A stretch of DNA of 53,601 nucleotides, counting the filler, from Streblomastix strix (taxonomy: Eukaryota), in NCBI GenBank assembly GCA_008636045.1. It is 3 parts of 3 records of this genome, joined end to end, with 100 filler letters (N's around TTAATTAATTAA, not from the genome) between each part and the next. Parts side by side here need not be neighbours in the genome. Positions count along the whole stretch, not along the records: positions 17,917 to 35,711 come from SNRW01000671.1; 2 more parts are not named here. One strand, 5' to 3'. Both the position numbers and the translations under genes were made by a program. Within the stretch, counting starts at the first letter, position 1. Every line of letters begins with the position of its first letter. Of this stretch, positions 2,332 to 52,913 are shown piece by piece. The notes beneath the pieces were generated by a model that made no database searches, was not told the DNA's origin, and saw nothing but the letters and a program-made list of their open reading frames with translations.

Positions 2332-5300
2332 TCATTTCAAAAAAATTTTCTTTTTCAGTTCTTTTTTAGATTATATCAACTTCTTCTTTTCGATTTTGAT
2401 ATCCATCTGAAGTTTTATATCAATGAATCTACTAATCATATCAAACTCTCTTAAATTGATAAGAACTGGACCGTTTACTTACTCCCAATTATTAATTTTT
2501 TATCGTTTGTTTGTTGATAGAAATTTAATTAAATCTACATCTCTCAGTCGAATAAATTTATTTAATGTGCATCGTGATGCATATTATAGTATATCTTACT
2601 GGATTGTTGAAGATTAAGATGATGAATGATGATTACGATGAAATGGACAAATCAGTTCAAGAAAGAGAAGACTTCTGCGATACTCTACTTAATAAGCAAA
2701 TTAGAAAGCATATTTGGCATACTATATCAACTCCTCAAGAGATTATAAACTGTATTGAGCAACAATCAATTATAAAATTGATAATTCAACTTCCATTAAT
2801 TCAATATCTTCATACAGTTCAATTAAATAGCAATTATTCTGTTTAGAGGATATATATGAATTTTCAAATAAAGTGGATAGAAAATTGGATTTGATTGTAC
2901 TTGATTCGTTTATGTATTAATCAACTTATATTTATTTATCTTTTTCAAAAGAATTAAAGTTTCTTCCAAATCTATAAGCAAAATTATTATTATTATTCAT
3001 TTAGTTTTTCTTCATGTCAGATGAAACTGTTTATTTCGATGAAGTGGAAGATTATGAATCTAATTATGTGATCAACAAGTGTTAATGTTATTGAATGTTA
3101 TTTTATTCGTTTGATTAATCTACGCATTTATCCTATTCTTGATCATCATATATTATTCTAATTGATTTATTTAAATTATTTTTTTTATATTTATTTGTGA
3201 ATTTTAAATTTCTTCATTCGCATTTTCTGTTTTACTTTATTATTATAAGTCAGATGATGATACCAAATATCCAACCTTATCTAAAAGCTCAATCTATTTA
3301 AATACATCTTATATAAAGCTCTGTTATTAACTTCTTATTGATGTAACAATATCAGGACAAATATTAATTAAAATAGCATCCTTTTCTTTAAGAAAATTCT
3401 GACTATTTTATATATTATTAAGATATTAAATACAATAAGAGCTAAGAACGTTCTTACTTCGTAATTTAAGATTATTATTATTTTTTATCTTTTCACAAAA
3501 ACTAAGAATTAAATTTGCCATTTTTTCATTTAAATTATTTGATGAATTTATGAATTAAGAAAAATTACTTTAATTTCTTTATTTCCATATGATATTAATT
3601 TAATCCCATGAAAAGTTACTAAAGAAATATTAAGCAGCAGATTATTAAAATTATCGAGTTTGGTTTGAATCAAGTTTTATGATCCATTATATTTAATAGA
3701 TTAAGAAATAGATTTTTTTCTTTTAATATTTTAATTATGTTTATTTGATTTGATTTTAATAAGAAATTCGGATATTCCTTTGAGAATAAGTAGATGAGGA
3801 GAAAGTTCAAAACGGCCACAGCGAGGAAGAATTATTGGATGTTCGAATGGAAAGGTCTATGTTTATGATTAATTATATTATTCTGATTAATTATTGAAAA
3901 TAGTATTTATTGTGAATTAAAATAAGTGAAGAAGGCATGAAGAAGCAGATTTCACACACAATTCTATCAATAATCGAGTAACAAGGATAAGGTGAGATTT
4001 ATCAATCTAATTTATGTCTTCAAATATTATTATATCTTAATCGACTAATCTTTAATTTCCATTATATGTTTATGATTTTTCTGCATTCTTTGATTCTTTG
4101 ATTTCATTCATTTCTTCAAAATTAACTTCATTTTTAATTTGTTAAATATTAAATTCTATTCTTTTTGTAATCAATTTAAATAGTGAGAAAAGAAAAACAA
4201 GTGGATCAATACATAATTAAGAAGATTTTATATTATTCTGCAGATAATCTGATGATAATGAAGATATGTTATTTTTGATTGATTGAAGAAGATTTTGATG
4301 TTTATTCTATTCATCTTATTTTTGGTTTTAATAAGATTAATTAATTTAATGTTCATCAAAGAATGAAGTAATGTTAATATAAGGTAATACCCATCCCCAT
4401 CCAAATGAGGTGATCATCCTCAGAGAGAAATAGTTATTAAAAGAATTTGATTTTAATGAATTATTTTGATGAAATAATGAATCTTTATATAATTTTTAAT
4501 CTGAGGTATTTTATTTATTAATTTTGAGAAAGTCAAGAATAAAATTCAAATAAATTTCGCTATCTCTTTAGTTTTGTTAATCTATTTGTTGTATAACATT
4601 TGATTTTTCATTTTCATTTTCAATTTCAATTTATTTATCATGGATTGGTTCTTTAGTAATGTTTGGAAGATTTGGAAATTAAAGTTTTGCAATGTCATTC
4701 AATGGATAAGCTAATTTCAATCCAGATAAGTCAGGAAGTAGTGATTATTAAGGTTAAATTTATGAAACATTAAATTATGACTGATATTAACTAATTTAAT
4801 TATTGTATGGTTATAATGGAAATGAATATACAGGGTTGGGATGAGAAAAATCTGATATTTAATATTTATTATGACTTTGAATTATATTAAGTGGAGTAAA
4901 TAATTGTTTTTATGGCGTTTTAATGATATTTTATTAAATATTTTCTCTTTCTTTTTCTTTAAAAAATTCAGTATTTTCATTGATTTCTGTGATTTGATTA
5001 GATTTTGAGTGTATTTTTATCTTTATTTTCTTATTCTTGTCTTGGCAATTCCAAATATTTTGCCCACATTGTTTATCAGTTAGAAGAAAAAAAGAGTTAA
5101 TTAAAACAATGCAGCATTATTCAACAGAAGATAAAGCTATCATTGATGCTTTGAAAAAGAATTTTTAATTCTTTTCATTGTCTAATTTAATTTATGTTTT
5201 ACCTTTTTATATATTCTTGTTTTATCCCATCTGTGATTCTAAATGTAATAATAATTATTCTTTTAGTTATGGATGAACAAATTCTGATCGTACATCAGAT

Positions 5301-8300
5301 GTACCAGTATATAAAGATATCGTTTAAGCCATCATTCTTTTTGATTCATTGTTTAAATTGAGTGATTCATTGAATTATATATATTGACTCATATTCGGGA
5401 GATAAGTTAATGACTGTGAAGAAAGTGGATGATTATGAATATGATTAAGATGAAATGGTAATTATCCAATAAAATCTTTATTCATTTATTATAAAGTTTA
5501 TTATTATTAATATTTATTGGAAATACTTTTTGAAAATAATAATTTAGATGCCTGTGGAAGCAAGTTTATAAAAATACTATTAATCCAATGATTGTTTGCT
5601 CTTTTTCTTTTTCTTTTGTTTTGTTATTTTGTATCTGATAATGAAAATGAATCACTTTCTGAGCTACTCTCAGTCGACTCATCATAATCAATTACATCTT
5701 ATAATGATTCATCTTATATTTGATCTTAAGTCATAAAATTTGTTTCATCCCTCATAAAATTCATATCCCAATAAAGTTCAATTTAATCAACGCCATATAC
5801 ATTTCCTAATGAATAATCTGATTATTCTTCATTTTAATGAAGAATAGCGAAATTTTATTTCGCTGCAGTATATCCATTAATAAATCCTCTAATTAAAACA
5901 TCAGAATCGTTCTTACTCTATTATTAAAAATTCGTTTCTGAATTTGTTAAATCAAGAGTAAATAATTTAAATATAATAGAAAGAGAAAGAAAAGGCCTAG
6001 AAAGTATATCTTAAACTAATCGTATGATCTGATATAAAGGCTTTTTATTAGTTGGATTATATATGTGGATAATATGAACCAATTGTAATGTTTCCAAAAT
6101 ATGTTGAACAAATTAGTGAGATTCTGAATTTTATACTTCACTAGATAAAAATTTGGGGTTATAAATGAGAGAAGGTTCAAAATAATCTTATTTTTTACCT
6201 CTAACAACAATGTCTCTTCCAATAAATGATGACGTTCTTTCAAGGAAAGAAATTGATTCAGAGAAGCATTAAAATGAATTATTATTAATAAACTGAAAAA
6301 TAATTCTAATTCTGATAGTCTAAATCCAATAAGCAATTTTAAATAAAGAAGGGTGTGATAACTTAAATTAAAAGAAAAGAGGAGTAGATTGACGCGTGAA
6401 CATATTAGAAATAGAATTTTTTAATTCGTTAAAGTTTTCATTCATTTAATTTAGTGATTTATTCTTTTAATTTAATTTACTTAATGTATTGCTTTCAAAA
6501 TTATTTAATTCTTATTCTTAATTATTTTGAGGGGTTGGGGGACGACTAGATTTTAATATCTAAGACGCATTCTTTGCAAATTCTTTCAACGGAATAACTG
6601 ATCTGAATCGATTTGAAAGAGAAGGCAAAGAAAATGATGATGTATGCGAAATTAAATTAGACTAACTTTATTTTTGTTGATCTTTTGAAGAATCAGTCGA
6701 TGATAATGAAATTGTAGTAGTACGAGGAAGATTGACTTCTAATGTTACTGTAGACTCAGTATGTTCATTCAAAGGAATTAATGGTTGCTGTGATTATATA
6801 TATTATTATTATGTTTACAGCCCAATTTAATCTTATTTGTTCTCAATTTCTTTTTCAATTTTTATTATTTTTTCCTTTTCTGCTACCGAATACTCCTAAG
6901 TTAATATTTACCCTTCACTACCATTATATTATTATGATGAATCTTTCTATTGTACGTTTATTTCTTCTTATTTATTCTCTTTATTTTATTCTTTCATGAT
7001 ATCTAATTATTTTAAGTTTTATTTATTAATTACTTCATCATAGATATTTTTTTCTTCTAAATCAATTTAGGAATATATTAAAGAAAAATAATTTTGATTT
7101 AATTTATATGTTAATTATTGAATATTAGAATTATTATTAACAAATAAATTCCTCAAAATATTATTGTTTATGTCATAATTTTCTGAGATGCATTTTATTT
7201 TCTTCATTAATTCATCTTTAATTTCGATATCTGTTATAAGTCTATCGCATTAATCTTCATCTTCTAATCTTTCTTAAATTTAATCATTCATTTTAAATTG
7301 AATTTCTAAAAAAGATTACAAACTATATATAATTTCATTTGAGAAATAAAGAATAGGAATCTTAGAAAGAAAATATGCTGTTAATAGAATATATTATTTA
7401 TATAATTTATTCAAATAAGATGAGTGAGAATTAGATTAAGAGAATTTTGAGGAAGATTTAAATAATTAGTTTATTTATTTTTATTCATGTTTTATCTGTT
7501 TGTTAGTTAGATAGGCAAGATATGCAAAAGAGGCAGCTGTAGAAATATTGAGATGATATCGTCTGGATAAAAAAAGTGATGATGTAAGATAATTATGAAA
7601 AATGAGAAGAATGGAAGAAATTGTATGATTTAAATAATTGATTGTAATTTCCTTAATCTAATTTTAATTTTATAATCTCTAATTTATTTGATTAGTTTAA
7701 TTATGCAAGATATCAGATTATTAAATATCTAATTCACTTTCTTCATCACCTTTATCAAATATTAATTTTTTCAGTCTTTTCTTATTAATTTGAATCTAAG
7801 ATTATTTTGACATCGCTTTTTCATCATTTGAATTATCAGAATCTGTAAATATTTCATTATCTTTTTCTTTTTAATTTAATTATAGTGTAATATTTTAATT
7901 AATCTATTCTTCAATTAATAAAGATTGATTTTTCTTTAATTGAGTTTTGTTAATAAGATTTTATTATTATATTTCAGCTACTTTTGAATTATCTGATTTA
8001 TTATAATTTTTTTATATTTAATCTTCATTTTCTCTCTTTCTTTTCTTCTTCTTCATTATAATTTAATTGTCAAATAAATTATTTTCATTTTCTTCTTCTT
8101 AATCAGATTAAATTAAATTATTTTCTTTTTCATTTTCGTATTCTCTTCCATTAAACATGTTTTAATCATGAAGATCTAAATATTATTCAACTTCATTATC
8201 AGAATTATCTTTTGTTATTTTAACGTTAGTTTTTTCAATTTCATTTGATCCATCATCATCTTCAATATTTAATCTCATTCTCTTAATTCCAGATCTCTGA

Positions 8301-15897: not shown

Positions 15898-16774
15898 ATG
15901 TTTAAATCTATTAAGGATGATTTATGCAAATTAATAAGTACATAAATTCCTGGTTCAAGTAATATTCTTGTTGTATGTTCCTCAGAATGTTTGAGTGAAT
16001 TATAATATTAAAAATATGCTAATAATACTGATTTATATTTAATAAAAAATTAAAATTCCAATTTAATAAACAATGAGATATAGAAATGATAAAGTTTGTT
16101 AGAATCATATTGAATCAAATTATTATTTCTTAGCTAGAAATGATATTATTGGTCTTTAATGTTTAATTAATTAGAATTTGATGAATCCATCTGTAGGATT
16201 ACGAAATATAAAAGGACGAGATCGCATTATCAGCACTCTTCGCGAAACAATCTGTGCATCAATCGAAGAACCAAACTTCTTTTCATAGTTTGGTGTATCA
16301 GCACCTCGTTCTGTGATCTTGTATGGACCTCCTGGAACTGGAAAGACTGTATTGGCTAGAGCAGTAGCTTAAGAAACAAGTTCTAAGCTAATAACAATCA
16401 GTGGAAGCGATTTTGGGAAATCTTCAGAAGAACAAGGAATTGAAATATTAAAGAAAACATTTTAATAAGCAAAGAATAATTAACCCTCACTTATTTTTAT
16501 TGATGAAATCGATTCAATATTTCCATCAGTATCAGAATGCAGTGAATTTGGAGGAAGCGGAACAGAAAATGGATTATCATGAAGATTAATTTGGGAGATT
16601 GGAATTCTGATGGATGAATTCAAATCATAAGATAGAGTAGGTATAATTGCAGCTACGAATTGATTAGATATTGTTGATAGATCTCTTAGACGTCGTGGAA
16701 GATTTGACAGAGAAATTGAAGTTGGTGTACCAAGTGAATATGAAAGAAAGAAAAGAATTTTAAATTTTTTCTGA
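15898..16774 (+). pseudogene. Disrupted CDC48/AFG2(SPATA5)-family AAA+ ATPase, single domain
   Basis: Walker A LYGPPGTGKT, Walker B LIFIDEIDS and SRH 'AATN*LDIVDRSLRRRGRFDREIEVGVP' are present. In-frame TGA at 16580 and 16661, a frame break near 16085, and the ORF ends at TGA 16772 after one AAA domain. Confidence 0.8.
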
Positions 16775-17816: not shown

Positions 17817-17916
17817 NNNNNNNNNNNNNNNNNNNNNNNNNNNNNNNNNNNNNNNNNNNNTTAATTAATTAANNNNNNNNNNNNNNNNNNNNNNNNNNNN
17901 NNNNNNNNNNNNNNNN
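17817..17916. other. Artificial contig linker
   Basis: 44 N + TTAATTAATTAA + 44 N = exactly 100 nt. Confidence 0.98.
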
Positions 17917-18235
17917 CCTACAGATCCTTCTCATCTAATAGGAAATGAACAGATACTCTCCCAGCTCTATCTCCCATAGGGGGTGCGGAACTGCTATACG
18001 CCAGGAATTTGATTTCTCGAATTTGAGAGTTCTCCAATCGAATAAATCGTTCCATTCGAAGCCAACGAACAGATAGTTAGGAGCTTATACTGCCAAGCGA
18101 AAACTGCTTTGGACGCAGAGCCGAGTAGTTTGACATTCCACTGTCAACTTTCAGCCCCACCCATATCGACTTAGGCCTCCGTAACTATCCCGTTAGTTGT
18201 GCTAAATGCCAAAAATGATTGTCTTTGGAGAATTG
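17917..18235 (-). repeat. Copy of an interspersed repeat (mobile-element relic) also present at ~37335-37540
   Basis: GTTAGGAGCTTATACTGCCAA-CGAAAACTGCTTT-GACGCAG...TAGTTTGACATTCCACTGTCAAC is shared with 37383-37455. GC content is higher than the flanks. Confidence 0.75.
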
Positions 18236-19258
18236 TAATGATAAGACTAATTATTTTTATTATTATTATTATTTGAAAATTTTATGTATTTATTTCTGAA
18301 ATTTGCAGTATTTTTATTGAAATTTGTAAATTCTCAGTGAAATTGAACATATTTCGATTAAATTTTATTTATAATTATTCGTATTCATTTTATAAGATGA
18401 TTTTAAAAAATTCCTCTGTTAAATTTAACTATGCTTTCGAGAGTTATTTTATAATTTATAAAATTTATTATTTTATATTTATTCGGAAGATATTTAAACA
18501 ATGTATAATTATTAACCTAAAGAAATTTTGAATGGAATTTAAAATATTTCTATATAATTTACGAGTATATGACAATGGAGCTGTAATATTTGAATTTTTT
18601 GAAAATCCTTTCATTATCTTTAGTCTTAATGAGATAAGAAATAGTATATTACTTATTATTGGAGAATATTTTTTCGGAAATTAATTATTAAATCAATTAC
18701 TTCTCCATTTATACAGATTTTTCAAAATTTTATATTTAAGATTAAATGTTCTGCCTCCAATGCCAGCTGCGAAACATGACTAAGTAACTGTGTGAAAATA
18801 TGACAATTACTTAAATTCATCTTTAATAGCAAAAACATGGCTTAATGATATGCTGGACATATATTTTATTGTGCTTTTTCCAATTTTCAAAATGGCCGAC
18901 CCATAGAGCGGACACCCTGTGGTGGGGTCAGTTGCTACGGCCCAAGTGGCATGTATCAAATAAAGAGGTGAAGTAAGGGACTCCAACAGAGATATCCCTA
19001 CATAATATCCTTTAGGTGGTAATTACGAAAAAATTTTTTATATTTTTTTTAACCATTATCCATCATTAGAATTTTTTTGTTGATTTTTTTTAATAAATGA
19101 GCAAAAATTTGTACTTTATATAGAGATTGCGAATTATGTCTAATTCGCAGTTCCGTTTTTTGACAAATCTCTTTTTGAATTAACCGATATTGGCTGTATT
19201 AAAAAAAAACTTTTAACATAAAGATAAATTCTGTTTCATTAATTTTTGTTTCAATGAA

Positions 19259-21240
19259 ATGTCATTCAAATCTAGTGATTATCTTCGATGATTAGCAAAA
19301 ATGCAACATTCTGATTATGTTAGTGGATATTTGTAACTTGGTGAAGTTCTAAAATCATTATCCATTCACCCATAATCATTTTAAATATCAAAACAAAATT
19401 TCTTCGATTCTCCTATAACTGAACTTACATCTAATGGAGTTATATATATTAGAGCACCATTAGGAGCAAGAGGTAAATCTGCATGTTCAATGGTTCAAAG
19501 TTGTTAAGTAAATTGGACAATTACTATACCTAAAAATACCTTTGCGATATAATTAAATAAAACATATAATGACTGAAATACTGCAGGTAAATTAATCGCA
19601 CGAACTAATTTCAATAGTAAGAGGATCCATTAGCCGATTGGACTACAGATATGTCATAAGCTGAATAAGGATATTTTGGTAAAACAGCTTAAGGAATTGA
19701 ATCGTCAGAACATCTATAATTTTGGATTGGATTCTCAACTGCGTGTGGACCATTCTACTAATTTTAACTAATGAAAGATGCAACAGCATTATGGGGATCT
19801 GCAATCAATGCAAGATAATAAGCTGTAATTAGTTGATATTCTCTTAGTGATTTGTGCACTAAAAATAGCGTTAGCGTATTATCTCTTGAAAGTATAATTG
19901 AAGGAAAACATCAATGTGGAGCATTTATTGATATCCCACTTTGTGAAATTGATAGATAAGCAACTATTGAAGATTTAGGAATACCATTTTACTATAAAAT
20001 TCCTTTTGATGTTACGTTCAGTGGAGTACTTGATCTTAACTAACTAAATCTTTTATTTAATTCAATACCTGTTCTCATACGTAATTATGCAACAATACAT
20101 CTATAATTATAGATATAAGATTTCCTGTTAGATTGGAAAGTTGTTTGGCTTATCAAAAATGAAACAGTATAAAATAATCATTTAGCTTATCATATGATTC
20201 AACCTGAGAAACCTGATATTGTATATCTATTATCAGGAGATGATGCAGATGATCTATCGTATAAAAGATATAACGTAAGAATTGTAAATATATAAAATGC
20301 AGCTATTCTTGACAAGATACCACAAAATTCAATTAGTTAGATTGGAACAGCTAAATTTGATACATTAGAGATATAAAACGTATGTTTCAATATTGAAAAT
20401 GAAGAAGCTATAATTGGTATGATTCAATAACAAAAAATAATTAACTTTCCTATATAAGTATTTAATACATAATCATCGAACTTTCCATTTAGTGGATTTG
20501 ATAAAACTAGTGGATCAATGTAAAGCATTATGTCATTCTCTAACATAAAATCACTATTTATGACATTTGCTATGCACTAATATCCAACATGGATTTTCCC
20601 GGTACTATTCACAGGACTTAATCTAGTTATTGATTAGAATAATGTTATCTCATAACCATATAAATCATTAAATTAAGCAACTAATGGATAAATGTTTGAT
20701 TGCTTCGTTGATTAAGATGTTATTAGTGCCCCATCAGATCTATATCATTCACTTACATTCGAGAATTTGAATGTTAATGATAAGAAAAATAACTATTGAT
20801 TGATAGATAATGCCGATTAATATAAAACAGCAAACATATTTTATTTAACAACATTGTATGGTGGAAGTAAAGCTATTAGAACACTTTATCCCAATAAATA
20901 TATGCTTGCATGGAAATTGGCTACTGATGATTAATTTATGCGAGGATATAACTCTTCAAAGATAGGATCAAGAACTAATATATAAGTGATTATATAAAGA
21001 AATTTGACTAAAGGAATTATTTATACAACTAATATAAATTCATCATAGAACTAAAATGATTTCTAATAATTCATTGGAACTAGAGCATATCCTGATCCTA
21101 CTAAAGCATCTATTACTCTAATGATGCATTACTTGTGTGATACGTTTGTTAGAATTATATTTGATGATAGTTCAGTACCATTAGTACTAAATATTGAAGT
21201 TATTGGTGAGCTTGCAGGTGGAGCTATTAAACCTTAATGA
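19259..21240 (+). pseudogene. Putative major capsid protein (~660 aa, double-jelly-roll candidate), disrupted
   Basis: MSFKSSDYLR*LAKMQHSDYVSGYLQLGEVL...QFWIGFSTACGPF...YPNKYMLAWKLATDDQFMRGYNS...MMHYLCDTFVRIIFD...ELAGGAIKPQ*. Beta-strand-like throughout with no low-complexity tracts. In-frame TGA at 19289, 19574, 19834 and 20797, and a frameshift at ~19620. Confidence 0.6.
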
Positions 21241-21292
21241 ATTTACAAAAATAAATTTTTTTTTCATTGGGCATTTATGCCAACTGACAAAG

Positions 21293-21418
21293 TCAGTGAC
21301 ATATCTTTGATTCGCAAGCATATTTGATTGCTGCTTCTAAAATAGTTTTAAATATTGCATGCCAGTTAATGTTCAATTACTCAAGAGAATAGATTATTGT
21401 CTCATTGAATCTTTCCAT
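21293..21418 (-). CDS. Small (41 aa) ORF of the viral cluster
   Basis: MERFNETIIYSLEQLNINWHAIFKTILEAAIKYACESKICH*. It starts 20 bp after the fibre-gene stop, behind TGATTAATTTCAAAATAAACAAAATG. Confidence 0.4.
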
Positions 21419-21438
21419 TTTGTTTATTTTGAAATTAA

Positions 21439-22169
21439 TCAATTTGCAGATTAATTATGAATAGCATATGAATCACAAACTTAAACGCAAAAACCATCAG
21501 GCAAATAAAGCAAGCACATTGTATTTATTATAACATTTCCATTAGAATTAATATAACAATCAATAGGAATTGCACCAGTCCAATCTATTGGATAACCATA
21601 TACCTTTTATGCAAACAGAACAGCATTTAATGGTATGTTAGTTGATGTTCTAGTGAATTTTGGTTTTATAGCATTATCAACGATTGAAAATAAAGTATAT
21701 GCAGATTAATAAAAAGTATTAGGATCTGAATGTGTTATTTACAATGAAATATATACTCTACTATTTTATGTTGTTAATGTACCCTATATGCGTTATTCAT
21801 TCATTCCATAAGCAATTGATGAATAACGTGCATTTTCAATAGGTTCATAATCTAATTAATCTTTTTCAATAGTATCTCCATTAGCTAATAGAATTTAGTT
21901 ACTTGTTCCACCTTATTTAATAATTTTACCAGCTATTATAGGTTATAAAATGTCTTTACTCCACGAATAATCTAGTCAAAATGTAAATTAACAAAATCGA
22001 TAGAATTCTTAAAGAATTAACTTAAATAATTAAAATACTTAATAATCACATTATCAATAACTTACAATAATATATTACGTTCCTTAATTTATTTTTAAAC
22101 CTCTTCTTACTATTTTATTATTTTACTAACCTATTCTTACTAATTAATCTATTCGTCTTCATCAATCAT
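21439..22169 (-). CDS. Tail-fibre/spike-like protein (~243 aa; one frameshift at a T-run ~21950)
   Basis: N-terminal coiled coil, then 'FVNLHFDQIIRGVKTF' and 'IIAGKIIKQGGTSNQILLANG', then a beta-rich C-terminal domain '...GTLTTQNSRVYISLQITH...DCYINSNGNVII...'. Confidence 0.6.
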
Positions 22170-22263
22170 ATCTAAATCGCTTAATTATTATTCAATTTTT
22201 ATTCCAAAAATAATAAACAAAGATTCATAGACTCAAATAGTATAATTGCCATTCGTTCTACAA

Positions 22264-23045
22264 TCAAAAGTCATCTTTTGAAATCTCTGATGTAGGTGCA
22301 TCAGAGAAACGAACAAAGTTCTTGTTAACACAATACTGTTTCTAAATTGAATTATAAAGAACATTTTCAATAACTTATATACTAGCATTTTTAATTATTT
22401 CATCCATTACTCTTATTAGATCTTTCTTTTTATATGATTTACCTATGCATGAATGCGATCTCATTAATGGTTCATCTAATACAATTTCAATATTATTTTC
22501 ATTCTCTTAAGTAATAAATGACCAAAGTTTAATAAAATTATCAGATGAAAGTATAAAATCATCACCTTTTTTCTTGTTGTTACTGTAGCCCATGGCTTAT
22601 CAATGAGGAATTTCATTATTTCAAGATTTGGATGAGAAAGATAAGTGTTTTTAACTACTTCCTCACTGTCAACTTATGCAATTGTTCTATCAATTTGTTT
22701 ATATTTATCTTTATTATATTTGCTCTCATACTTAGTAATTTTTTATTTTGTAAGGATCAATTATTCAGGTGCAACTTGAATAATTTCATTCCCAGTTTAA
22801 ATTATATTTTCTTTTGGTTATAACGTATCATCAATGGTTTCGCAAATGATTTCACTTCGTTCAAGACCTATCTTCGGCGGCAACTCTGTTGCTATCTTAG
22901 GCATTGTCTTAATTCTGCTAATTGCATCATTGATCAATTACAATCTTATTTTATCTTCATCCGTTAATTCTCTATGTTTAATCTCAGACATTTATTTTTT
23001 AGTTTTTGACATGCGAATTGAGTTTCTTTCTATGTCCTTTATCAT
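22264..23045 (-). CDS. Hypothetical protein of the viral cluster (frameshifted at an A-run ~22570)
   Basis: MIKDIERNSIRMSKTKKQMSEIKHRELTDEDKIRL...LIDKPWATVTTRKK/GDDFILSSDNFIKLW...SEISKDDF*. Confidence 0.55.
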
Positions 23046-23068
23046 TTTCTTTATTTAAAAATATTCAA

Positions 23069-23743
23069 ATGGACTTACAACACGCATTAAAGAATTTTAC
23101 TGAAAACGGAACAATTATTGAATATTTTGACAACAGATATGTAATCCAAATTAAAAAAGATATTAAGGTGTTCGAGGAAAGAAAGAAGACACTTAAAAAA
23201 TTATCATAAACATAGTAGAATAAATTATTGTTATAAGCGAAAGGTGGGGTAGCTCCAAATAAAAATGTTTAAAAAGCATCTTAAAAATAAATTGAAGGTG
23301 ATAAAGATTTTATATCTTATGAACCATAAGAAGATTAAAATGAAAGCGATGAAATTTCAATAAGTGAAGTTAGGAAAAAACCATTAAAGAAATAAGTTAG
23401 AAATTACGTTTCCGCCGAAGGTAGCAACAGAGTTGCTGCTGAAGGTAGAAAAAGGGTTGTAAAAACATCAAAAATTTCATAAATTAATAATACTAATGCT
23501 CAACTTGATTTGGAAGAGCTATTTAGGTTGAGAACAGAAAATTCATTTATTAAACAATATCATTTAGATGCTGTTAAGCAAATTGAGAAATATAAATAAA
23601 AAGTTAAACGATATAAGTAACCAAAATAGATTATTGAAAAGGAAGAGCCATAAGAATAATAAGTTTAAGCTCCAAATGAATGTTAAGAGGAATCTGCTTA
23701 GTATGAAGAACATGATAAAGATACTAATTTTGATTTATATTGA
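23069..23743 (+). CDS. Hypothetical 224-aa Lys/Glu/Gln-rich protein of the viral cluster
   Basis: ATG 23069 to TGA 23743 is open with TAR=Gln: MDLQHALKNFTENGTIIEYFDNRYVIQIKK...DKDTNFDLY*. Confidence 0.7.
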
Positions 23744-23769
23744 TTGATTATTTTTGTTCCCTGTTTAAA

Positions 23770-24058
23770 ATGGATTATAAAATAGTATACACAAATGATT
23801 AAGATGAGGTAACATTGACAAGTAATATTCCTAATGATAATTATGAAATGCTTTAGATAGATAGTTGTTAATTATTCTTAACAGATAAACAAATCACTGA
23901 TTGCAAAGTTAATATTAAAATTGTTAACGACAAAAAATAAATACATTAAATAAATTAAATAACTTATTAATGATTATTGTAAGATACATAATACTACAGT
24001 AGCAAGAGAAGCTGAAGAATCTAGATATCTATAATATGAAGTTGATAATGATCTTTGA
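23770..24058 (+). CDS. Small hypothetical protein of the viral cluster (probably one frameshift)
   Basis: MDYKIVYTNDQDEVTLTSNIP...AREAEESRYLQYEVDNDL*. The span (289 nt) is not a multiple of 3. Confidence 0.5.
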
Positions 24059-24083
24059 TCATTATTTTTGGTAACCATTAAAA

Positions 24084-24275
24084 ATGGATTAGACTCGGTA
24101 TAATTATCATAAACAGCAAGAAACATAACTATTAAACGAATATAAACAAAAGACTAAAGAAATTTTAGATTTTGATATAGAACTAAAGTAAAAATAAGAA
24201 CAACATCTATATGCTTTGCTTGACTATACTCGTGGTTCAATATGTATAGCTGACGCTTATCTTAATAAAAAATGA
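24084..24275 (+). CDS. Small 63-aa helical protein of the viral cluster
   Basis: MDQTRYNYHKQQETQLLNEYKQKTKEILDFDIELKQKQEQHLYALLDYTRGSICIADAYLNKK*. Confidence 0.55.
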
Positions 24276-24599
24276 TTTTGATTATTTTTATTAGACAAAA
24301 CACACTTTAATAAACAAATTACCTTTTATCATTACCCCACTTAAATTTACTTTTTATTTATTAAGTAGTAACACTAGATAATCATAAGGATTAACGATAC
24401 AATTAATGATACACATTTACTATCACCGTTTGTTCGAATCGTAAACGAATTTGAATAATCCTTCGTAACTGTGCATTGGATTAATAATATGGATTAATTA
24501 TATGGATTAACGTTTATTTATTCATGATTCACATCTGTGTGGTGAATTAATGTATATATGAACGTTTATTCGATAATTATATGGAAGATTGGCTGTCAT

Positions 24600-25016
24600 A
24601 TGTTAAAAATCATTGATAAATAACTCAAATTGCTACATCTATTCAATTAGCGAAGGCAGATTGATCTGAAAATGAAAGCTTTTTAACATACGGCAAACTT
24701 CTTCTTTGTATACTACTAATCATCAATTCAACCAGCATTAAAAACACTTCAATTCGCTATTGATCAGTGCTATATTCTATTCGAATAATCATGCTCAATA
24801 ACACTCTCCAGTATGATAATGAAGAATCTTTTCTCTAGATTTCTAGATTTCGAAGCGAAGTTTGGAGATTCTAAACATGATTATCATGTAAAGATTCTTC
24901 TTTCAAGATATGCACAAACTGAAGTTGAAGACTAAAAGAAACGATGTGAAGAGATGGGAATTAAATATGAAGAAGAAGAAGAAGATAAGAGCTATGATGA
25001 ATAGGATGAATAATGA
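24600..25016 (+). pseudogene. Isolated C-terminal HAT-repeat fragment resembling rRNA biogenesis protein RRP5
   Basis: 'CYILFEQSCSITLSSMIMKNLFSRFLDFEAKFGDSKHDYHVK..LSRY' matches the pattern of the last RRP5 HAT repeat (LFER..L...KMK.FFK.YL.FE...G....VK). Acidic tail; no upstream S1 domains seen. Confidence 0.55.
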
Positions 25017-25137
25017 TTATGAAATTTGTTTTATTTTATTAATAAATAATAATGAGTGAAAATAAGTTTTTATAACATAAAATACTTTTTAATATTTTTA
25101 TTAGAATAATGATATAAGATACAATTGAGCTCGGCTT

Positions 25138-28100
25138 TCATTTGGGAGGGCATCCACCTTTGCAATAATAATGTCTATCTTGATTATAACAACAATAACT
25201 ATTCTTGCATATGTCCTTTTGACATTTTTCGCATTTCGTAATACAATGATAACAAGGCATTTTCCCACATTGGTTACAATTTTTCTTTGAACTAAAATAG
25301 TGATCATTGCATGATTTCTCATTGCATACAGGGCAAACTTTAACACATTCAGGGCAGAGATGCAAATTGCAGGAATGACATTTGCATTATTTATCTAAGC
25401 ATCCTTCACAGATGATCTTATTACACTTTGGGCATTTTGTCATACAACATGAACAAGTCAATTTGGTGCAAATTATGCAAACTTATCCACTGCTTGTATG
25501 ATCTGAACACCACTTCTATGAACAAGCATTGCATTACTTTGAGCATCCAATACACACTTATTAGTTGCATGTTGCACACATTGCACCACTAGAAAGACAT
25601 TATTTACAAACACTCTCTTTGCATTTGGGACATTTCTTGAAACATTCTTTACATCTCAATTTCTTACATATCTAGCATTCAATCCAATTGTTGTTGCAAT
25701 TATTGCATTATTTCTTCTAACAAATCTGGCATTGTTTGAAACAAGCTTCACAAACCCTTAAACTGCAAGAACATGTTATTCCTTTAGATAAACACCCTTT
25801 GCAAAAGTTCTTATCACATTTCTAGCATTTAATTTGACATTTCAAGCAAATTAACTTTTTGCAGGAATTGCAATTTGATTCATTTCCTAGACAATCTTTG
25901 CATATTATTCCATGTTAACTTTCATTCTATTACAATTCTTTTCTATAAACTTGCTATTCACATTTAGAGCATTTAGTTTCTTTAATTAAGCATCTTTTGC
26001 AAAAGTTCTTATCACATTTCTAACATTTAATTTGGCAATCTCTACATGTCATTTTATCACACTTGTAGCATTTAGATCCAGAATTAACACAGTTCTCGCA
26101 CCATAAATTCGAACATACTTGACATTTCTTAATACATTCTTGGCAGATCTATTTCTAACATCCATCACATTTAATTCCTTTTGATAAACATCCTTTGCAA
26201 ATATCTTTATTACAATTCTGACAGTTTGTTTTGCATTATGTACACATTATCAATTTGCATTTGGAACAACTTACACCAGTGTTAGCATGATCAGAACACA
26301 ACATCTATTAACAATCTTAACATTTCCTTATACAATATTCACAAATCAATTTATCACATCCAGAACATTTAATTCCTTTGCTTAAGCAAACAGTACAAAT
26401 GTCTTTATTGCACATTTGACAATTAGCTTTGCATGTATTGCATGTCATTTTGCTGCATTTATAACATCTAACTCCAGAACTTATACAACCACTGCACCAT
26501 TTGATTCGGCAAGCTTCGCAGTCTTTAATGCATTTCTAACAAATATTTCGTTTGCATCCTTCGCATTATATTCCTTTTTCTAAGCATGTTTTGCATATCA
26601 ATTTATTACATTTATAACATTTTGCACGACAAGCCTTACAAGTCATTTATTTACAATAAGAACAAGATAAGCCATCATCAACACATAATGAACACAAATA
26701 GCATTTACATCTATTACATTATTTACCACATCTTTTGCAAATGTCTTCTTAGCATATCTAACAATGTATTAAGCATTATTTGCAAGGCTACCTCTAACAA
26801 CTTGAACAGGTTGATCCAGATTCCAAACAAACTAAACATTTATTCCTCTTGCATGTTGGACATTGTTTGAAACATGTTGAACAGATTAACTTCTTACAAT
26901 CGGGACATTTAATCCCTTTGGATATGCACTATTTACAATATAAGTGATCGCACAATTCGCATTTCTGTAGGCAATTCTCACAGAATTACTTTAAGCATTT
27001 TAAACATGATGTGTTTGTTCCAATGCATGATGGACATTTAGTCTTCAAACATGTGCTGCATTTCTTAAGACATTCATGGCAATGAAGTTTATTGCAAATT
27101 TCACACTTTTTTAAACATCCATTGCATGATTATTTCAAACAGAATGTGCATTTGGTTTCATCATTCGCACATATTTGACATACTTACTTCTTGCAGTTTG
27201 GACATTCTTTCAAGCAAACTTGGTTGTGTGAAATATTGCAATGTTGACATTTATTGTTCTTATGGCATTAATCGCAAATATACTTTCCACTTTATTCACA
27301 TTTCTTAATACATTGTTTGCAGAATAGTATTCCACATGCATTACATTCAATTGAACAAGCTCTACATCTTTCTTTCTAACATTTCTCACATTTCATTGAT
27401 ACTCGATCTTTCTTGCACAATACACATACAAATGAACTTCCTCCAGAAGAAGGCATTTATTAGAGTTATTATTGGAGAATATTAATAAGATTATTACTTT
27501 CTCTCAGTTCTTACTCAATTAATTTAATTCTTTCTTCCTTTGTTCTAACTTTATCTTCACATCTCTAAAGTCTTTCTTGCATTATATCGCAATTATCACA
27601 ATGTCCACTTTGAATTTAATTCTCTTTGCTTGAAACTTTCGATCTTAATAAAGGAATTAGTTATTGTGCTTATCCTTCAATTGATTATTCTTCTCCTTCT
27701 TCTTCTTCAGCTCCTGAAATCACTTCAAGAATTTATATTATTTCATTTAATTCATTCTTATTCCAAATCAGTCTTTATGCAGTTGCTAATTGTAGTAAGA
27801 TGTCCAAAATAGCAGATTTCACATGATCAGAATTCTACTGCAAAGATGATGAAGATGATGATGAATTATCTTCTTGTTAAAGAATCTAAATTGCTTTATT
27901 CATGAATCCTCCATGTTATACCAGATAAGATTTTAATCCTTTCATTTCAATAATTAAATTGATTAGTGTGCTCTTGCCTGCTTTACAAATAGAGCTGTTT
28001 GGTGATTGAATTGTCTGAATGAGTGTTGAACAGAGGATTTCAATGTGCGCATCTTTTATTGGTTATCCAGATTTCGCATTCAAATTCAGAAGCACACTGA

Positions 28101-28525
28101 GACATAGTGCCTATAAATAGAAGAAGAATTATCTATTAAGAATAAATAATACATACTTATATCTCGGAACTAGTCTACATGCAAAATAATTTTACGATCT
28201 TATCAATCACAAGATCAGCTCCTTAAATAACTTCTTCCAATGCTGGAAAAAATTATTAAAATTATTCATAATTTCAATTTAATAAAACAATTGATCTAAT
28301 ATTTTAGCATACACGTGGATATAAGGAAGAGAAGTTATTGTAATGACTCTTTAAGCTTTTCTCCTTTCAAATGCTCCAAATTCCCAACAATCGAAAGTAT
28401 TTCATTTGGCTATAAAGTTAAAGTTAGAATTTGATATGTGAAAATAGAGGAAATTAGTTTACCTTAACACGAATAGATAAAGTTTCTCGAATTGATGCGT
28501 TTGATCTTTCTTCTTCTTTGTTCAT
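25138..28525 (-). CDS. ~1072-aa protein: helical (ARM-like) N-terminus, coiled coil, ~770-aa CXXC-repeat array
   Basis: Exons 28525-28463, 28409-28313, 28242-28157 and 28110-25138, with GT-AG introns of 53, 70 and 46 nt. They sum to 3219 nt and keep frame. The C-terminal part is continuous CxxC repeats. Confidence 0.8.
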
Positions 28526-30051
28526 TGCTCTACTTTCGAATCAAAAATAATAATTATGATAAAAAAAAATTAGTAATTTTTTTGATTGAGTAGGATCAAT
28601 TAGAATAATTTTAAGAAAATTACAATTATCTATTTCATAATTAACGGTTGTATGATTTAATTGTTGATAATATAGTTAATGCGTTCAAAATTCAAAAAAT
28701 CGCAAAATAAGAACAAATTAATGGAAATCAAAATAGGAAAAAAAAAGAAAAATTAGAATGTAATAATATAAATTATATATTGTTAAATGAAATTGTAAGC
28801 TTTGCAAGTATTTGCTCAATAGTAGTTATAAATAGCGGATTTTATTTAGTATACGATGACAATTTGCGTATCATAAATTAAAACGTTAACAGGCAAAATT
28901 TGGAAGTATTACATTATGTTTATTCAAATTAAAGAATTTAAACAATGAATTATATTTTTCTAATATATATAATATAAAAAATTAAATAAAAATGTTCGAG
29001 ACAAATGAGAAAAATGAAGATTAATCAATTTATTTTTTAGTTGCGTCTAATTGTATATAAATAATCTTATTAATATTATTTTTGGATAAAAAAATTAGTG
29101 AGTAAAAAATAAATTTACGCAATAATGCGAATTGTAAATCGAGGGGGAAAAAATTCGTTTAACTAATAATTCAAAATTTTAGTCAGTTTTTATTTCATAT
29201 ACCTTAGACGCTCAGAAACACTGACAATATAATGCCCATTAAAGAAATCATTTGTAAAATATATCTAATTGCAAAATTTTATATTTTAAAATATAATAAT
29301 TATTTATAGCTAGCATTAAGGAATTTTTTCAATAAAAAAAAATTTGGAAAAAATACTTTTCTGAGAAATCAAATAAAAATTTAATTATTTTCTCAGAAAA
29401 TCATTGAACTACAAAATTAAATATGTTTTCAAAATTTCAAAAAATTTGGTTTTGTATCTCTTAAGATATTTGTAGTTTTTATTCCTATATTTTTAATTTC
29501 ACTTCCAAAAATAATAATCAGTGAGTATGCAATAAAATTTATTTACACTGTTTTTTTATATAAATTTGTTTGAATTCATTTATTCTAAATTTTATCATGA
29601 AAAAATAATACAAATAAAAGCTAGAAATTTTAATTGAGTTTTTTACTAGCATAGTTAAATTATAATTAATTAATTTTTAATTTTATTTTGTTGAAATTAA
29701 ATTATTTATTACATTTTAATAATTATTACTAAATTATTTTTTGATAACTTTAGTTTGATTGATTTTAATGAAATTTAAATTATTAGTTTATTCTTCTCGG
29801 TCGAATGAAGTATATTTTAAACAAGTTTTTATATAAACTCAATTAACAGGACACATAATTTCATACAATTCACATCATTAATATGAAATTATCAATCCAA
29901 CAAAAGATAACAATTTTTCTTTAAAAAAACGTTATTCCGCCACTCCAGCGTATTTTTTACACTTAATAACCTATTTTTTATACTTTCACATATAATTATC
30001 ATATTTATTTCTTCAAATATTATTTTTTTATTAAAAAAGAATCAGAATAAA

Positions 30052-30735
30052 ATGAAATCCGAGTAAGAAATCTAAAAAACAGCAAGAGCCATAGTTTCTT
30101 TCACTGATTCATACTCATAAAACAAGCAAGGAAAGTAAAATGAATAACCAGAATCAAAATCAAAACTATCTCTTACATATATTGTTTCTTCTCTTAAAAA
30201 CCTTTCATAACAAATCCAGATGAACAAGTCATGCAAATAAGTGATTCAGATTCCGAAGTTTCTTCATTCTCTCACTGTACTTTCCAGTTTCAAACTTGAA
30301 ACTCAGTTTAGCAAAAAAATAAACAACCAGAGATGGGAAGTGAGACATTGGAGTAGACTGTGTCTTGCTTGGATTCAACATTATGGTGACGAATATGATC
30401 AAACAGAACTTGCAAATTATGGATATGGAAAAGTGATTTGCATTTTATTCAGCACAGCTGGAGGCATCGGCGAGGAACAGAATGAGGAGATCGGAAATGG
30501 ATTGATGTACATCTACGATTTCCTCAGAGAACTTCATAAAGGGAGAAATAATTAACCATCCTTCCAACCACTTCCATTACTTGCACGAATGACAGAAGAA
30601 TAAATAGAAGAAGAAGGAGCAAATGAAGAAGTTGAGGCCTAAATGATTAATTATGGACATAAATATTGTAATATCAAATATTATGCAAAATACGCAAAAG
30701 CTGTGATTCTGAACCATTTCATTCACAGGCGTTGA
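30052..30735 (+). CDS. 227-aa member of a lineage-expanded hypothetical helical family
   Basis: Intronless ATG 30052 to TGA 30735. Motifs 'FSTAGGIGEEQNEEI' and 'QPSFQPLPLLARMTEEQIEEEGANEEVEAQM' are recalled as typical of an expanded Streblomastix family. Confidence 0.8.
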
Positions 30736-31098
30736 ATATGACCGGTTTGGTACATTCAGTTATATATATATTTTTTCATTATTGAACAACAGTTATTCAT
30801 TTCATGCTTAATTATATATTTTATTTTTTAGTAACTTAATGAAACACTGTGAATGAATTTTTTAAACTTCAAATTATCCATGTGCTTCAATATCTGTACA
30901 TTTGACTAATAAAATAAAAAAATTGCAATAAATTTTGACAAAGTTTAACGTTTTGTAATGCTCTTTATTAATAGGTATATAAAAAAGAAGCCGTGAAATG
31001 AATTGACAGTTATTCCTCATTTGAGATGCGAGAAGAAAAAAAAATTCACTCACAAATCTATTCAGAGTAAAATAACATTAAAACATTCAGCACAATAA

Positions 31099-33494
31099 TC
31101 AGTCACTCAATCTCGGTCGCTTGTTGTTTTGCTTATCCAACATGAATCTAAACAACCGCCTCTGCGTCTTCGCATCAAACTCGTCCAAATCCAACTCGAG
31201 TTCTTCACCAGTTAATCTCTGAATATTATAAGTGGATTATATGGATTTTAAATATTATATATATTATTAATTAACATATTTAATATAATTAATTGATGTT
31301 ATATATAACATTAATTAATATTATTAATTAATATATTTAATATAATTAATTGATGATATATCATATACATCATTAATTAATATATTTAATATATCGTATA
31401 TAATAATCATATTATCCATATATTTCACAATACACACATTCTCAAATCCAGAAACTGTCTTCTTCAAGAACTGGACAATCTTGTCCATTTCTTCTTCGCC
31501 GATCTCCTCAAAATGCGCAGTTACAAATGCATTCTCCTCTTTGGTAAGTGGACTTGTGGAATTAGTTAATGAATGGAATATATAAATATATGAATATGTG
31601 TATAAATGAATATATGAATATATGCATAAATGAATATATGTATAAATGAATGGAATATATGTATAAATGGAATATATGAATATATGTATAAATGGAATAT
31701 ATGAATATATGCATAAATGAATATATGTATAAATGAATGGATACGATAAAAAATTAATAAATAAACAATGAATTTAAAGAAATATGAATAAATAATTGAA
31801 AGCTCAAATCAACATTGCATTTACGCAATTAAATGCTTATAAATTCATATATCGTAAATAACACATATAAATACATATATCATATAAATCATAACATATA
31901 CATCTCAACATACACATCATCATCCGCTTAAGCTATTTCCAGTACACCCAAGTCCTGTTATTATTATTAATCATCGTTTTCATCATCAAGATCATCCTCA
32001 AGGTCATCATCATCATCTTACGGGTACATCTACTTGTTCTGCGAAGGTGTAATGTAATTCATATTATTCATGCTAAGGTTGCCCATTCTTGGGTCCATCT
32101 AATTAATTGAGCTTATCGGTTCTGGTATTTAGTACTATTATTGGTACATTAGCCCATTGGGCGTTCTAATGTTCTATCTCCCTCTAGTAATTTGACGTGG
32201 TGTTTTATTCATAACAGGGTAGTATTCTATTTAGTTAGTAGGATCATATGGTTGTTGCTACTATTGCAACTATTACTATGGGTAGAGATACTGCTGATCA
32301 TACCGACTATCAACCTTCTGCTTCTTCTTCTTCGGATTCCGCGGTCTTTTCTTCGCTTTTTTAGTGTCTTAGTATATAAGAGGTAAAACGTTCATCCCCT
32401 TCTACTACGCCATCTACAGTTACATCTACCTGTCTATTATATACCCCTCCTATGAAGTCTGGGGCGATTTCCTTATTTTTGCAGCTTTCCCAGTTCGTGG
32501 ATTGACAACGGGACCTCCTTTCTCTAACACAACGCCTTCTATGGCTTTAGAAGCTGCAACTGAAGCTGGACGTGGCTTTCTTTTAACCAAAGGCTCAGAT
32601 TGCAAGGTTTGGTTGTGATGTGATTATTGAGATGCTTACTGCTAATATAGTCCTTATTATCCATCAAGCAGTTATTATTATTATTATTACTATTACTGTT
32701 ATAACTACATTTATTACCCAGGGTTTATCTTGCTCGCCGCTAACAGATGCCTCGCTTCTGATATTTTCGCTTCCTCCACTTCTTCATTCGTCCACCATCC
32801 TTTCTCAACGACATGCTCAAGTTTCTCTGCGAAAATCTTCTGCAGGTCATTCGCCATTATTGTGACTAGCGTATCCTTCTTGTTGTATAAGTAGCAGTTA
32901 TCCCACACTAAGTGAACAGCATCAAGCACTTCTGACGCGCTTCGAAACATGGGCTGTTTCACTGATTGGGCCACAATATCAGATGGGCGAAGAATTTGCG
33001 GGTTTTTGGTCTTCTTCGGTGTAGTGAAGGTCGGGATTCGGTCTTTGATGGTCCCCAAATCGATTGGGCGTTTGACTATTGTGAAGTAGTCGGGGATGTT
33101 TAGTTGGATTGGGTCAACTGGGGATGAAAAGGGACCCCCTGCTTTGTGCTGCATTAGGTCGATGATGCATTTGCGGAGGTAGCTGTGGTGTAGATATATG
33201 TGCATGTGTATGTTTATTATATTTAGAGAGTAAGAATTATATATTAGAAATTTATTGAAAAAATATATATATTATAAAAATTATTAGAAAAATTATTTAT
33301 TTGTTTGAAAAATAACAATACTTTAGAGCATCAACAGTTCGACGGTTGAACTATCCACTGTTACTTGAACCAACTTGTCTTGTTGGAGATTCATTATTAT
33401 CATCTGATGAATCAGTTCCTCCTTTGTTTGGTTTAGAATTTTCCATTGAACCAAGCACATCCATGAGCTTGTCATATGCGCCGGTATCAGCCAT
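31099..33494 (-). CDS. BET/GTE-type protein: single bromodomain plus ET (NET) domain
   Basis: Exons 33494-33322, 33182-31914, 31552-31438 and 31218-31099. Bromodomain 'GPFSSPVDPIQLNIPDYFTIVKRPIDLGTIK...LVWDNCYLYN'. C-terminal ET 'PLTKEENAFV...MDKIVQFLK...ELELDLDEFDAKTQRRLFRFM'. Confidence 0.88.
31570..31742. repeat. Intronic minisatellite (GAATATATGTATAAAT-like units)
   Basis: Tandem degenerate units inside intron 2 of the bromodomain gene. Confidence 0.85.
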
Positions 33495-34321
33495 TTTAAC
33501 AAGCTGGAATAAATTAAATTTGAGTTGGAAATAAAGATAAGTGAATGAAATAGATAAATATAATCAGATAATATAAGTAAAAGAGTGCAAATTATGGCAA
33601 TTAAGTTTTTAAAAAAATCAATAAATGTATTAATTAGACAATTTTTAAGATAATTTATTTCAAAATATGATCAAATGCCATATATTAAAAAATAACTATT
33701 AATAAAACAAAAAATAATTTGATTGTAACTGAAAAATATGGTGCGAATGGCGATATTTGTTGAAAAAAATTAAAAATGTTTCTGTGCTCTATACATATTT
33801 TAAATAACTTTACAATATGTCATAAATCATATAAATAAATAATTTCAATAGTACAAAATATATTATAAAATAATAAAATAGACAGATCAGTCATAATGTA
33901 GGCTTTTTTAGTAAATTTCAATTTAATCGGATGATCAAACGTTATATGTATAGATTTTGTGAATAAACTATAATTATATATATAAAGAATACAATTCTTA
34001 TAGTATAAGCTGAAATTAAAATGTAAATGTGCCAAATTAAAAAAAATAAAAGAATCAAGCTGGAATTGAACCTGTGATTTCTTATATAATAACAAAAATA
34101 AAAGCAAAATTAGAAAAATAATCTCGCCAAAATAATTTCGATTCCCCATAAACACAAGCAAGATTAATTTTAATTTCTGAATATTTACTTAGAATCGATT
34201 GTTTTTTTTAATGAAAAAGTGATGTTAAAAATAATAATTTGATAAAAAATAATTGATAGACTTTTTTTCTGTTCTATTTAACATAACGAATATTTAATAA
34301 TAATAAAATAAATAAATAAAC

Positions 34322-35711
34322 TCATTCAGGATTAATGTTAATAATCGTAATTTCGCTGAATCCAGAAGTTCGAGCAGGTGTTCCAGCTGATCCTGTTCCT
34401 GGATTCACATACATATTCCTTGCAAAAGACTCTTTTTACTCCAAAATATACACAATGTCCTTCTAATTATTATTACTCCTATAATTCTATTATTTATTAA
34501 TATTACTCTATTTACGATTATCTGATGTTATTGTCAATAGTCTTGCTGGATGCGAGAAGAAAAGTCTTATGAACAATGGATGGATGGGGAAGACTTGTCC
34601 ATTGTGGGTGTGACCTGCGAGGAATAAGTCACCGCGAAGGAGATCCATGGATGACAACCAGGCTTCTGTAATATATATATTATATATATTATATATATTA
34701 TATTGATTATAGGCATGAATAAATTATTTGTTTGTTAATAAATATGAATAAATTATTAGTTTATTAATAAAAATAATTTAATTTGGATATAATTTTTAAA
34801 TCAAATTCTTATTATTTATTATAATTAATGAACAAACCATCATGCGGTCGGTGATGAAGTATAATTGTATAAGGTGAATCAGAAGACTCATTTTAGAATA
34901 AAGATGTATTTGTTGAATAAAGATTATTAACATCTTCAATGAATTAGTCTTTTGGTCCATCTTCAATTCCAATTATTCTTAAGTTATTTGTATTATTATG
35001 ATTTGAGTCGGATTAATTTATATGGTTATCATTTAAACTGGACGAATCTGAATTGTGAAGTGAAATATTAATAAATTCATTTGTTAATAAACGAACCTGG
35101 CAAAAAATGAAAAATTAGAATAAAAAACAAATTGAAGTTAAATAAATTAAATCATGAATGAATTATTTAAAACAAAAATTAATTAGCATAAATAAATATA
35201 AATTATTCTATATCACACATTAGGGAAATGTTTAATCATCTTCTCTACATTATCTCTGCCAGACATAATATCATGATTACCCTGCAATTATAATAATAAT
35301 TGAAAATAAATTATCAACAAAGATATTAACTATGAATAAATATAAAATAATATCACACCATCACAAAGAATACTCCATGTTTCGCTCGAAGTTTTGATAG
35401 AGGTTGCATTTCAGGATATGCATTATATTACTCATTATTTGAATGTAGTATTTTTCCATTGACTGATTCATCCTATTTAACAATTCCAGTTCTATCAACA
35501 AGGTCTCCAGTAATACAGATTATATCTCCTTTGAGAGTATTCACTTATGATACAACCTTATTAAGGAATGATCGACTTCTAGAGCCAATATGTATATCTG
35601 AAATGTGGATTATTCGCAGTGATTGTTTGATCTTAGTGCTCCTGAATGAATAATAAAATAATAGTAAAAAAAAATAATAATTGTGAAAAATTACATACTT
35701 CAAATAGATAT
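34322..35711 (-). CDS. Calcineurin-like metallophosphoesterase, YkuE/TMPPE type (5' truncated, several introns)
   Basis: Motifs HISDIH, ITGDLVD, GNHD (across intron 35282-35358), LHHRP, LAGHTHNGQ and 'YVNPGTGSAGTPART..SEIT'. TGA at 34322. Confidence 0.88.
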
Positions 35712-35811
35712 NNNNNNNNNNNNNNNNNNNNNNNNNNNNNNNNNNNNNNNNNNNNTTAATTAATTAANNNNNNNNNNNNNNNNNNNNNNNNNNNNNNNNN
35801 NNNNNNNNNNN
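35712..35811. other. Artificial contig linker
   Basis: 44 N + TTAATTAATTAA + 44 N. Confidence 0.98.

Positions 35812-46174: not shown

Positions 46175-52913
<6,739 letters not shown>

Follow-up and report, generated by a model that had tools for sequence, protein, structure and literature searches.

A predicted double-jelly-roll capsid pseudogene, probably of a repeatedly integrated polinton-like virus, in the oxymonad Streblomastix strix

In a 53,601-nt stretch of the genome of the oxymonad Streblomastix strix (the window, filler included) we identified what is very probably the broken gene of a double-jelly-roll (DJR) major capsid protein (MCP) of a polinton-like DNA virus, one that has likely been integrated many times in this genome, the copy at hand having likely decayed since. 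Read with genetic code table 6, in which TAA and TAG stand for glutamine, positions 19259-21240 form a single frame of ~660 codons that is interrupted by four TGA codons and lacks one base near 19618 (Table 1). This code is needed, the capsid path containing 42 in-frame TAA/TAG in 659 codons and these two triplets accounting for 42 of its 50 glutamine codons. With table 11 the longest frame in the window is at most 185 codons, while table 6 opens host frames of 2,127 and 2,177 codons; the larger of these holds 179 TAA/TAG and no internal TGA, and host frames terminate at TGA.

In-frame TGA occurs in 4 of the 659 codons of the capsid path, compared to ~12.6 expected from composition, and sister sequences match at E = 0, both of which support the initial annotation in treating the region as a real gene of ~660 codons and not a chance frame. 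All four TGA coordinates it had listed (19289, 19574, 19834 and 20797) are correct, the first two lying in the frame of the ATG at 19259 and the others in the next frame. The -1 shift it had put near 19620 is placed at ~19618-19620 by a gap-free alignment to the sister P0335 together with contigs carrying the extra base; forms with one extra base behind 19618 are present among the contigs of all four runs.

Table 1. Features of the capsid pseudogene and of the repeated viral fragment that contains it (positions along the window, table 6)
Feature	Position	Strand	Description
Multi-copy viral fragment	~19150..24830	.	~5.6 kb; core ~19.15-23.85 kb, rarer part to ~24.83 kb; bounded by contig depth
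5' piece, MCP pseudogene	19259..19620	+	ATG 19259; ~120 codons (table 6); TGA 19289 and 19574
-1 frameshift	19616..19622	+	one base fewer than sister copies; sister protein continues gap-free; not an intron
3' piece, MCP pseudogene	19618..21240	+	540 codons; TGA 19834 and 20797; terminal TGA 21238-21240
Fibre-like 178-codon open frame	21439..21975	-	fibre label without database support
143-codon coiled-coil-like open frame	21801..22232	-	weak PHROG matches only
Uncharacterised gene	22264..23087	-	split near 22570, apparently by a frameshift; no family match (Pfam, PHROGs)
Uncharacterised 224-codon gene of the same element	23069..23743	+	29 homologues, all S. strix

A search with the 3' piece returned 220 homologues at E <= 0.001. 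The best 120 of the 220 all belong to S. strix, with 43-91% identity, and 12 of these 120 bear the automatic UniRef name 'Major capsid protein'. Intact sisters had been suspected elsewhere in the genome, and full-length open sisters do exist: 17 of the 120 listed, all gene-caller products, are covered over their full length in one alignment with no gap over 15 residues. The closest full-length sister, P0335 (654 aa, on a 38.6 kb contig), aligns gap-free to both pieces: the 5' piece (aa 1-121) matches residues 1-121 at 86% identity, the 3' piece (aa 1-534) residues 121-654 at 81%. Further open sisters are P0027 and P0079, on contigs of 41 kb and 33 kb. Another subfamily comprises five 652-aa copies with a mutual identity of 85-97%, which argues for several waves of spread, not necessarily current ones. 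A quick tree, built from 48 of 277 proteins and carrying a long-branch warning, unites all 37 strix-type rows in a single clade (support 100) on a long branch of length 1.97. Within this clade the window copy clusters with P0003, P0004, P0006 and P0007 (support 99), its end branch measuring 0.16 versus 0.048 for P0003. Pfam gave no significant match for any of 40 capsid sisters, and two capsid profiles found no match among PDB sequences; at the sequence level there is no significant match to any known capsid family in Pfam, PHROGs or PDB sequences.

The fold was predicted on a natural sister, P0018, whose identity to both pieces of the pseudogene is 65-66%; as natural full-length sisters can be folded, a consensus repair of the open reading frame was unnecessary. 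When the alignment contained strix rows alone (76), model quality was low (pLDDT 51.9), although the top matches were already DJR proteins (Sputnik and iridovirus capsid proteins). After the addition of 20 distant rows (56-row alignment) the P0018 model reached a pLDDT of 81.5 and a pTM of 0.87 and displays two tandem beta jelly rolls, the arrangement that defines the DJR MCPs of Bamfordvirae. All 18 rows shown by Foldseek against the PDB are DJR capsid proteins, with EhV-201 as the best (E 3.3e-11) and PBCV-1, mavirus, SGIV, faustovirus and Sputnik among the others; the top rows in BFVD are adomavirus LO7, virophage, MELD and NCLDV capsid proteins (best E 2.8e-13). With VIA, the MCPs of PBCV-1 (Z 16.2, rmsd 3.9, 346 residues) and faustovirus (Z 16.2, rmsd 4.6, 368 residues) lead, followed by ASFV p72, iridovirus, poxvirus D13, mavirus, Sputnik, PRD1 and adenovirus hexon. 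The scores are tied between groups, so the fold does not assign a family. Compared to the solved DJR proteins (PBCV-1 Vp54, faustovirus, ASFV p72, mavirus, Sputnik), the model is alike in its two jelly rolls over residues 15-624 (Z 12-16, rmsd 3.9-5.8), whereas it is only 6-10% identical to them and has ~250 residues in insertions. In agreement with the fold, the nearest Atlas clusters of the capsid protein by features are Preaxostyla, Parabasalia and Capsid_N/NCLDV capsid. The family is therefore predicted by modelling to be a DJR major capsid protein, in line with the earlier proposal of a divergent MCP of this type and with its remark on beta-rich composition; neither another fold nor cellular best matches, either of which would have spoken against that proposal, came to light.

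Beyond S. strix, the best 150 of 167 representatives include ten proteins of 462-696 aa with 23-29% identity, several of which sit on metagenomic contigs of 10-22 kb. We worked with the standard-code metagenomic relatives P0164, P0185, P0221-P0223, P0235, P0243, P0262 and P0275-P0277 and with the loci L001-L003, P0221, P0222 and P0262 being carried on contigs of 20-22 kb; of two scans for metagenome loci the first gave none and the second these three, and four locus scans of a viral contig collection gave none. The standard-code viruses share with the S. strix copies a homologous full-length capsid protein (23-29% identity to the window 3' piece, with motifs along the whole length), but differ in their standard code, their open frames and an A32-like ATPase adjoining the capsid gene, while the S. 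strix copies stand apart as a clade of their own on a long branch of the quick tree. The L002 capsid protein is 23% identical to the window copy over 545 aa (E 8e-35). In both L001 and L002 a 299-aa P-loop protein is encoded behind the capsid gene, 0.7 kb away in L002; the Atlas clusters closest to this protein carry Pox_A32 and occur most often in Parabasalia. Locus L002 (13.5 kb) has two further frames, one of 577 aa that weakly matches a tail protein (E 5e-5) and one of 701 aa that is penton-like by eye only, with no Pfam or PHROG match; in this partial locus no PolB or retroviral-type integrase frame or motif was found. Three copies of a 73-nt repeat lie at its contig start (64-363) and might represent a viral terminus or origin, and three tandem genes of 201-222 aa, alike at their ends and belonging to no Pfam family, occupy 5380-7293.

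The capsid pseudogene is part of a longer repeated fragment. Summed contig depth in run X1, which served only to bound the repeated part, was 40-42 at 18411-18904, 6,476-78,009 at 19152-23844 and 2,793-7,443 at 23845-24832, then 197 and 53 beyond. Host genes on the contig, the step in depth at the edges and the 220 sisters agree with the integrated, multi-copy nature of polinton-like viruses (Polisuviricotina). Downstream of the capsid, the 178-codon frame, which we take to be fibre-like by its motif, has no significant match in Pfam, PHROGs, PDB sequences or phages, and the overlapping 143-codon frame is possibly the frameshifted front part of the same gene. For the split gene behind it, sister contigs have one more base near 22566-22567. 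Two of the 29 homologues of the 224-codon gene are separated by only 1 and 2 locus tags from one of the capsid sisters listed, on a contig of equal length; a likeness of this gene to a similarly placed frame in L002 was considered and dropped, no similarity being found (E 0.74). Across the fragment and its surroundings (17917-25300) we detected no ATPase, PolB, integrase, recombinase or Walker A motif, nor anything matching the L002 ATPase, and no penton frame was seen in the window. No terminal repeats were found, and no inverted pair links the two borders of the repeat; this says nothing about the family at large, as the viral fragment here appears to be a truncated relic. Runs X1 and X4 contain a head-to-tail joint between 25051 and 19033, such as a 6-kb circle or tandem unit might give, but the joint depth of 1,262, set against bins of 154.7 and 197, leaves room for only ~20-30 matching bases per side in AT-rich sequence, so the joint is likely due to chance. 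Partly within the repeated region, a broken plus-strand frame at 24480-25016 resembles HAT-repeat proteins (weak cwf3 match, E 0.062); it is presumably Rrp5-like and perhaps a captured host fragment.

The window joins three unrelated contigs of ~17.8 kb each through linkers N44-TTAATTAATTAA-N44 at 17817-17916 and 35712-35811, and the capsid pseudogene lies on the middle one (17917-35711). The same contig carries a bromodomain gene (E 4.8e-14) and, at 25138-28206 on the minus strand, a 1,022-codon Cys-rich frame with CxxC repeats of 66-codon period that belongs to no Pfam family. A 148-nt repeat (82%) is common to two contigs (18076-18223 and 37383-37530), with raised depth at 17917-18163, indicating a further dispersed repeat family beside the viral fragment. 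The first contig has a 205-nt inverted pair (83%) near both its ends, at 163-367 and 15961-16165, 15.6 kb apart. The 2,177-codon frame lies on the plus strand at 46380-52913, apparently reading through short introns, and resembles an IRE1-type kinase/RNase.

What the four TGAs and the shift represent can be approached through the sister copies. Opposite TGA 19289 sisters carry R in 19 of 24 cases and K in 5; TGA 19574 faces W in 14 of 16 close sisters, in a column that is variable across all 64; TGA 19834 faces G in 19 of 24 close sisters, with S commonest across all 105; and at TGA 20797 G stands in 24 of 25 close sisters and in 69 of 106 across all. In P0335 the four positions are occupied by R, W, G and G, which answers a question raised by the initial annotation: differing residues have been replaced. 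One codon opposite three different residues argues that the four TGAs, as far as the alignment tells, are nonsense changes and not recoding. Translation of TGA as an amino acid, the shift being mended either through splicing of a tiny GT-AG intron or on the ribosome through frameshifting, is exceedingly improbable. A 17-nt GT...AG stretch does span the shift and its removal would restore the frame, and W is found at one TGA site in close sisters; yet the residue pattern in the sisters largely refutes recoding, the 2,177-codon host frame has no internal TGA and TGA serves as terminator, and the 17-nt excision would remove residues that the sisters keep (KEDP). A karyorelict-type code (TGA = Trp) combined with a 17-nt intron was rejected on the same residues. 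It is also unlikely, albeit less so than recoding, that the cell carries a whole or almost whole gene, stops and shift being artefacts from assembling many similar copies. Many stops in endogenous viruses have been attributed to assembly, and in another protist polishing eliminated them, according to PMC10120064. At 19576 and 20797 every contig listed has the sister base and none the window's; among these contigs the stops at 19574 and 20797 lack backing, and the four stops are unconfirmed and provisional. The best run contains only 31% of the sampled words. Against an artefact stands a 169-bp stretch (20023-20191) to which a contig of run X1 is identical letter for letter, at a depth of 13.8, similar to the 8.5-35.6 of the pieces in the unique flanks; since run X1 may be the source sample, this exact match tests the assembly and not the population. 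Nine of the window copy's changes at conserved columns fall within this stretch. Furthermore, a chimera of intact copies would not yield TGAs that are absent from every sister protein, neighbouring genes are broken too, and contigs leave out rare variants. At strongly conserved columns (>=80% of sisters) the window copy is altered in 30 of 324, P0003 in 2 of 282 and P0009 in 1 of 219; of the 17 sisters scored, three open ones reached 9-12% (P0007 9.4%, P0045 9.0%, P0096 11.8%), as deviant as the window copy, partly through subfamily bias. The earlier description of this copy as a fossil is thus sustained for the conserved-column changes of the 169-bp stretch by an exact contig piece, but not for the four stops.

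A further reading concerns the family as a whole: its jelly-roll protein might have been domesticated by the host, or be carried by transposons alone, and might have ceased to build virions. The window fragment, with neither ATPase nor penton nor polymerase, would agree with this, as would the fact that the family is known from genes alone and not from virions. We consider it improbable, slightly more so than an assembly artefact: hundreds of dispersed, diverging copies and many fragments fit repeated insertion and decay, and relatives occur on metagenomic contigs of 10-22 kb, with an A32-like ATPase beside the relative in both L001 and L002.

Endogenous capsid genes of S. strix have been described before. 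Bellas et al. 2023 (PMC10120064), the only paper on them that our literature survey found, reports 820 MCP hits in this species, all in cluster MMPC_40 of the Metamonada group, located by PSI-BLAST from Trichomonas MCPs, and notes the use of the host code. Our comparison with MMPC_40 consisted of exact motifs, locus tags and by-eye motif order against part of the published set. The window family resembles that cluster in its host, in the TAA/TAG = Gln code, in a DJR fold seen only by structure and in having Sputnik among its matches; by eye, the first jelly roll has the same motif order as the S. strix, Trichomonas and Entamoeba examples of PMC10120064. The Parabasalia cluster among its Atlas neighbours is a further likeness to the Metamonada MCP group. 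It differs in length, at ~650 aa versus 562 aa for the published S. strix exemplar. None of eight short family motifs occurs in the examined part of the PMC10120064 supplement, none of four published S. strix MCP locus tags is among the best 120 sisters, and no MMPC_40-like sequence could be recognised in the best 150 of the 167 representatives. Within the published portion compared, the window family looks distinct from the 562-aa exemplar. The sister P0011 (EZS28_010470) is 8 locus tags away from that exemplar (EZS28_010462). We give even chances to the proposal that S. strix carries a second, uncounted endogenous polinton-like lineage with a ~650-aa capsid, whose standard-code relatives of 10-22 kb bear an A32 ATPase. 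Metamonad polinton-like viruses are left ungrouped since their capsid genes are so divergent, and more genomes are needed (10.64898/2026.06.19.733378); the portions consulted of this and related preprints make no mention of Streblomastix.

Taken together, we propose that the virus integrated many times into the S. strix genome and that this copy would then have decayed neutrally. With the first TGA at codon 11, this copy is unable to yield capsid protein, and at ~5.6 kb, with no ATPase, polymerase, integrase or ends, it would not be self-mobile. DJR viruses are known to build trimeric capsomers, package their genome by an A32 ATPase and integrate. By analogy, trimers of the intact product would serve as the capsomers of an icosahedral shell, which may have been filled by an A32-type ATPase such as the one found beside the standard-code relative in L002. 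The virus seems to have been using the host code already when decay of this copy set in: TAA or TAG stands at 18 of 21 conserved Gln sites of the capsid gene copy, far beyond what ~10% decay could make. Three conserved non-Gln sites have mutated to TAA/TAG in the window copy and are hence read as Gln, so that this code partly hides decay and an open frame in S. strix is weak proof of an intact virus. In itself the window copy is unremarkable, one fossil out of hundreds; both this kind of element and its presence in S. strix were known already. The capsid family is of modest importance, through its confident fold, its open sisters and its standard-code relatives with an ATPase. If the second lineage is real, it and its relatives would help to place the ungrouped metamonad polinton-like viruses and would provide a record of a virus lineage switching to the genetic code of its host.
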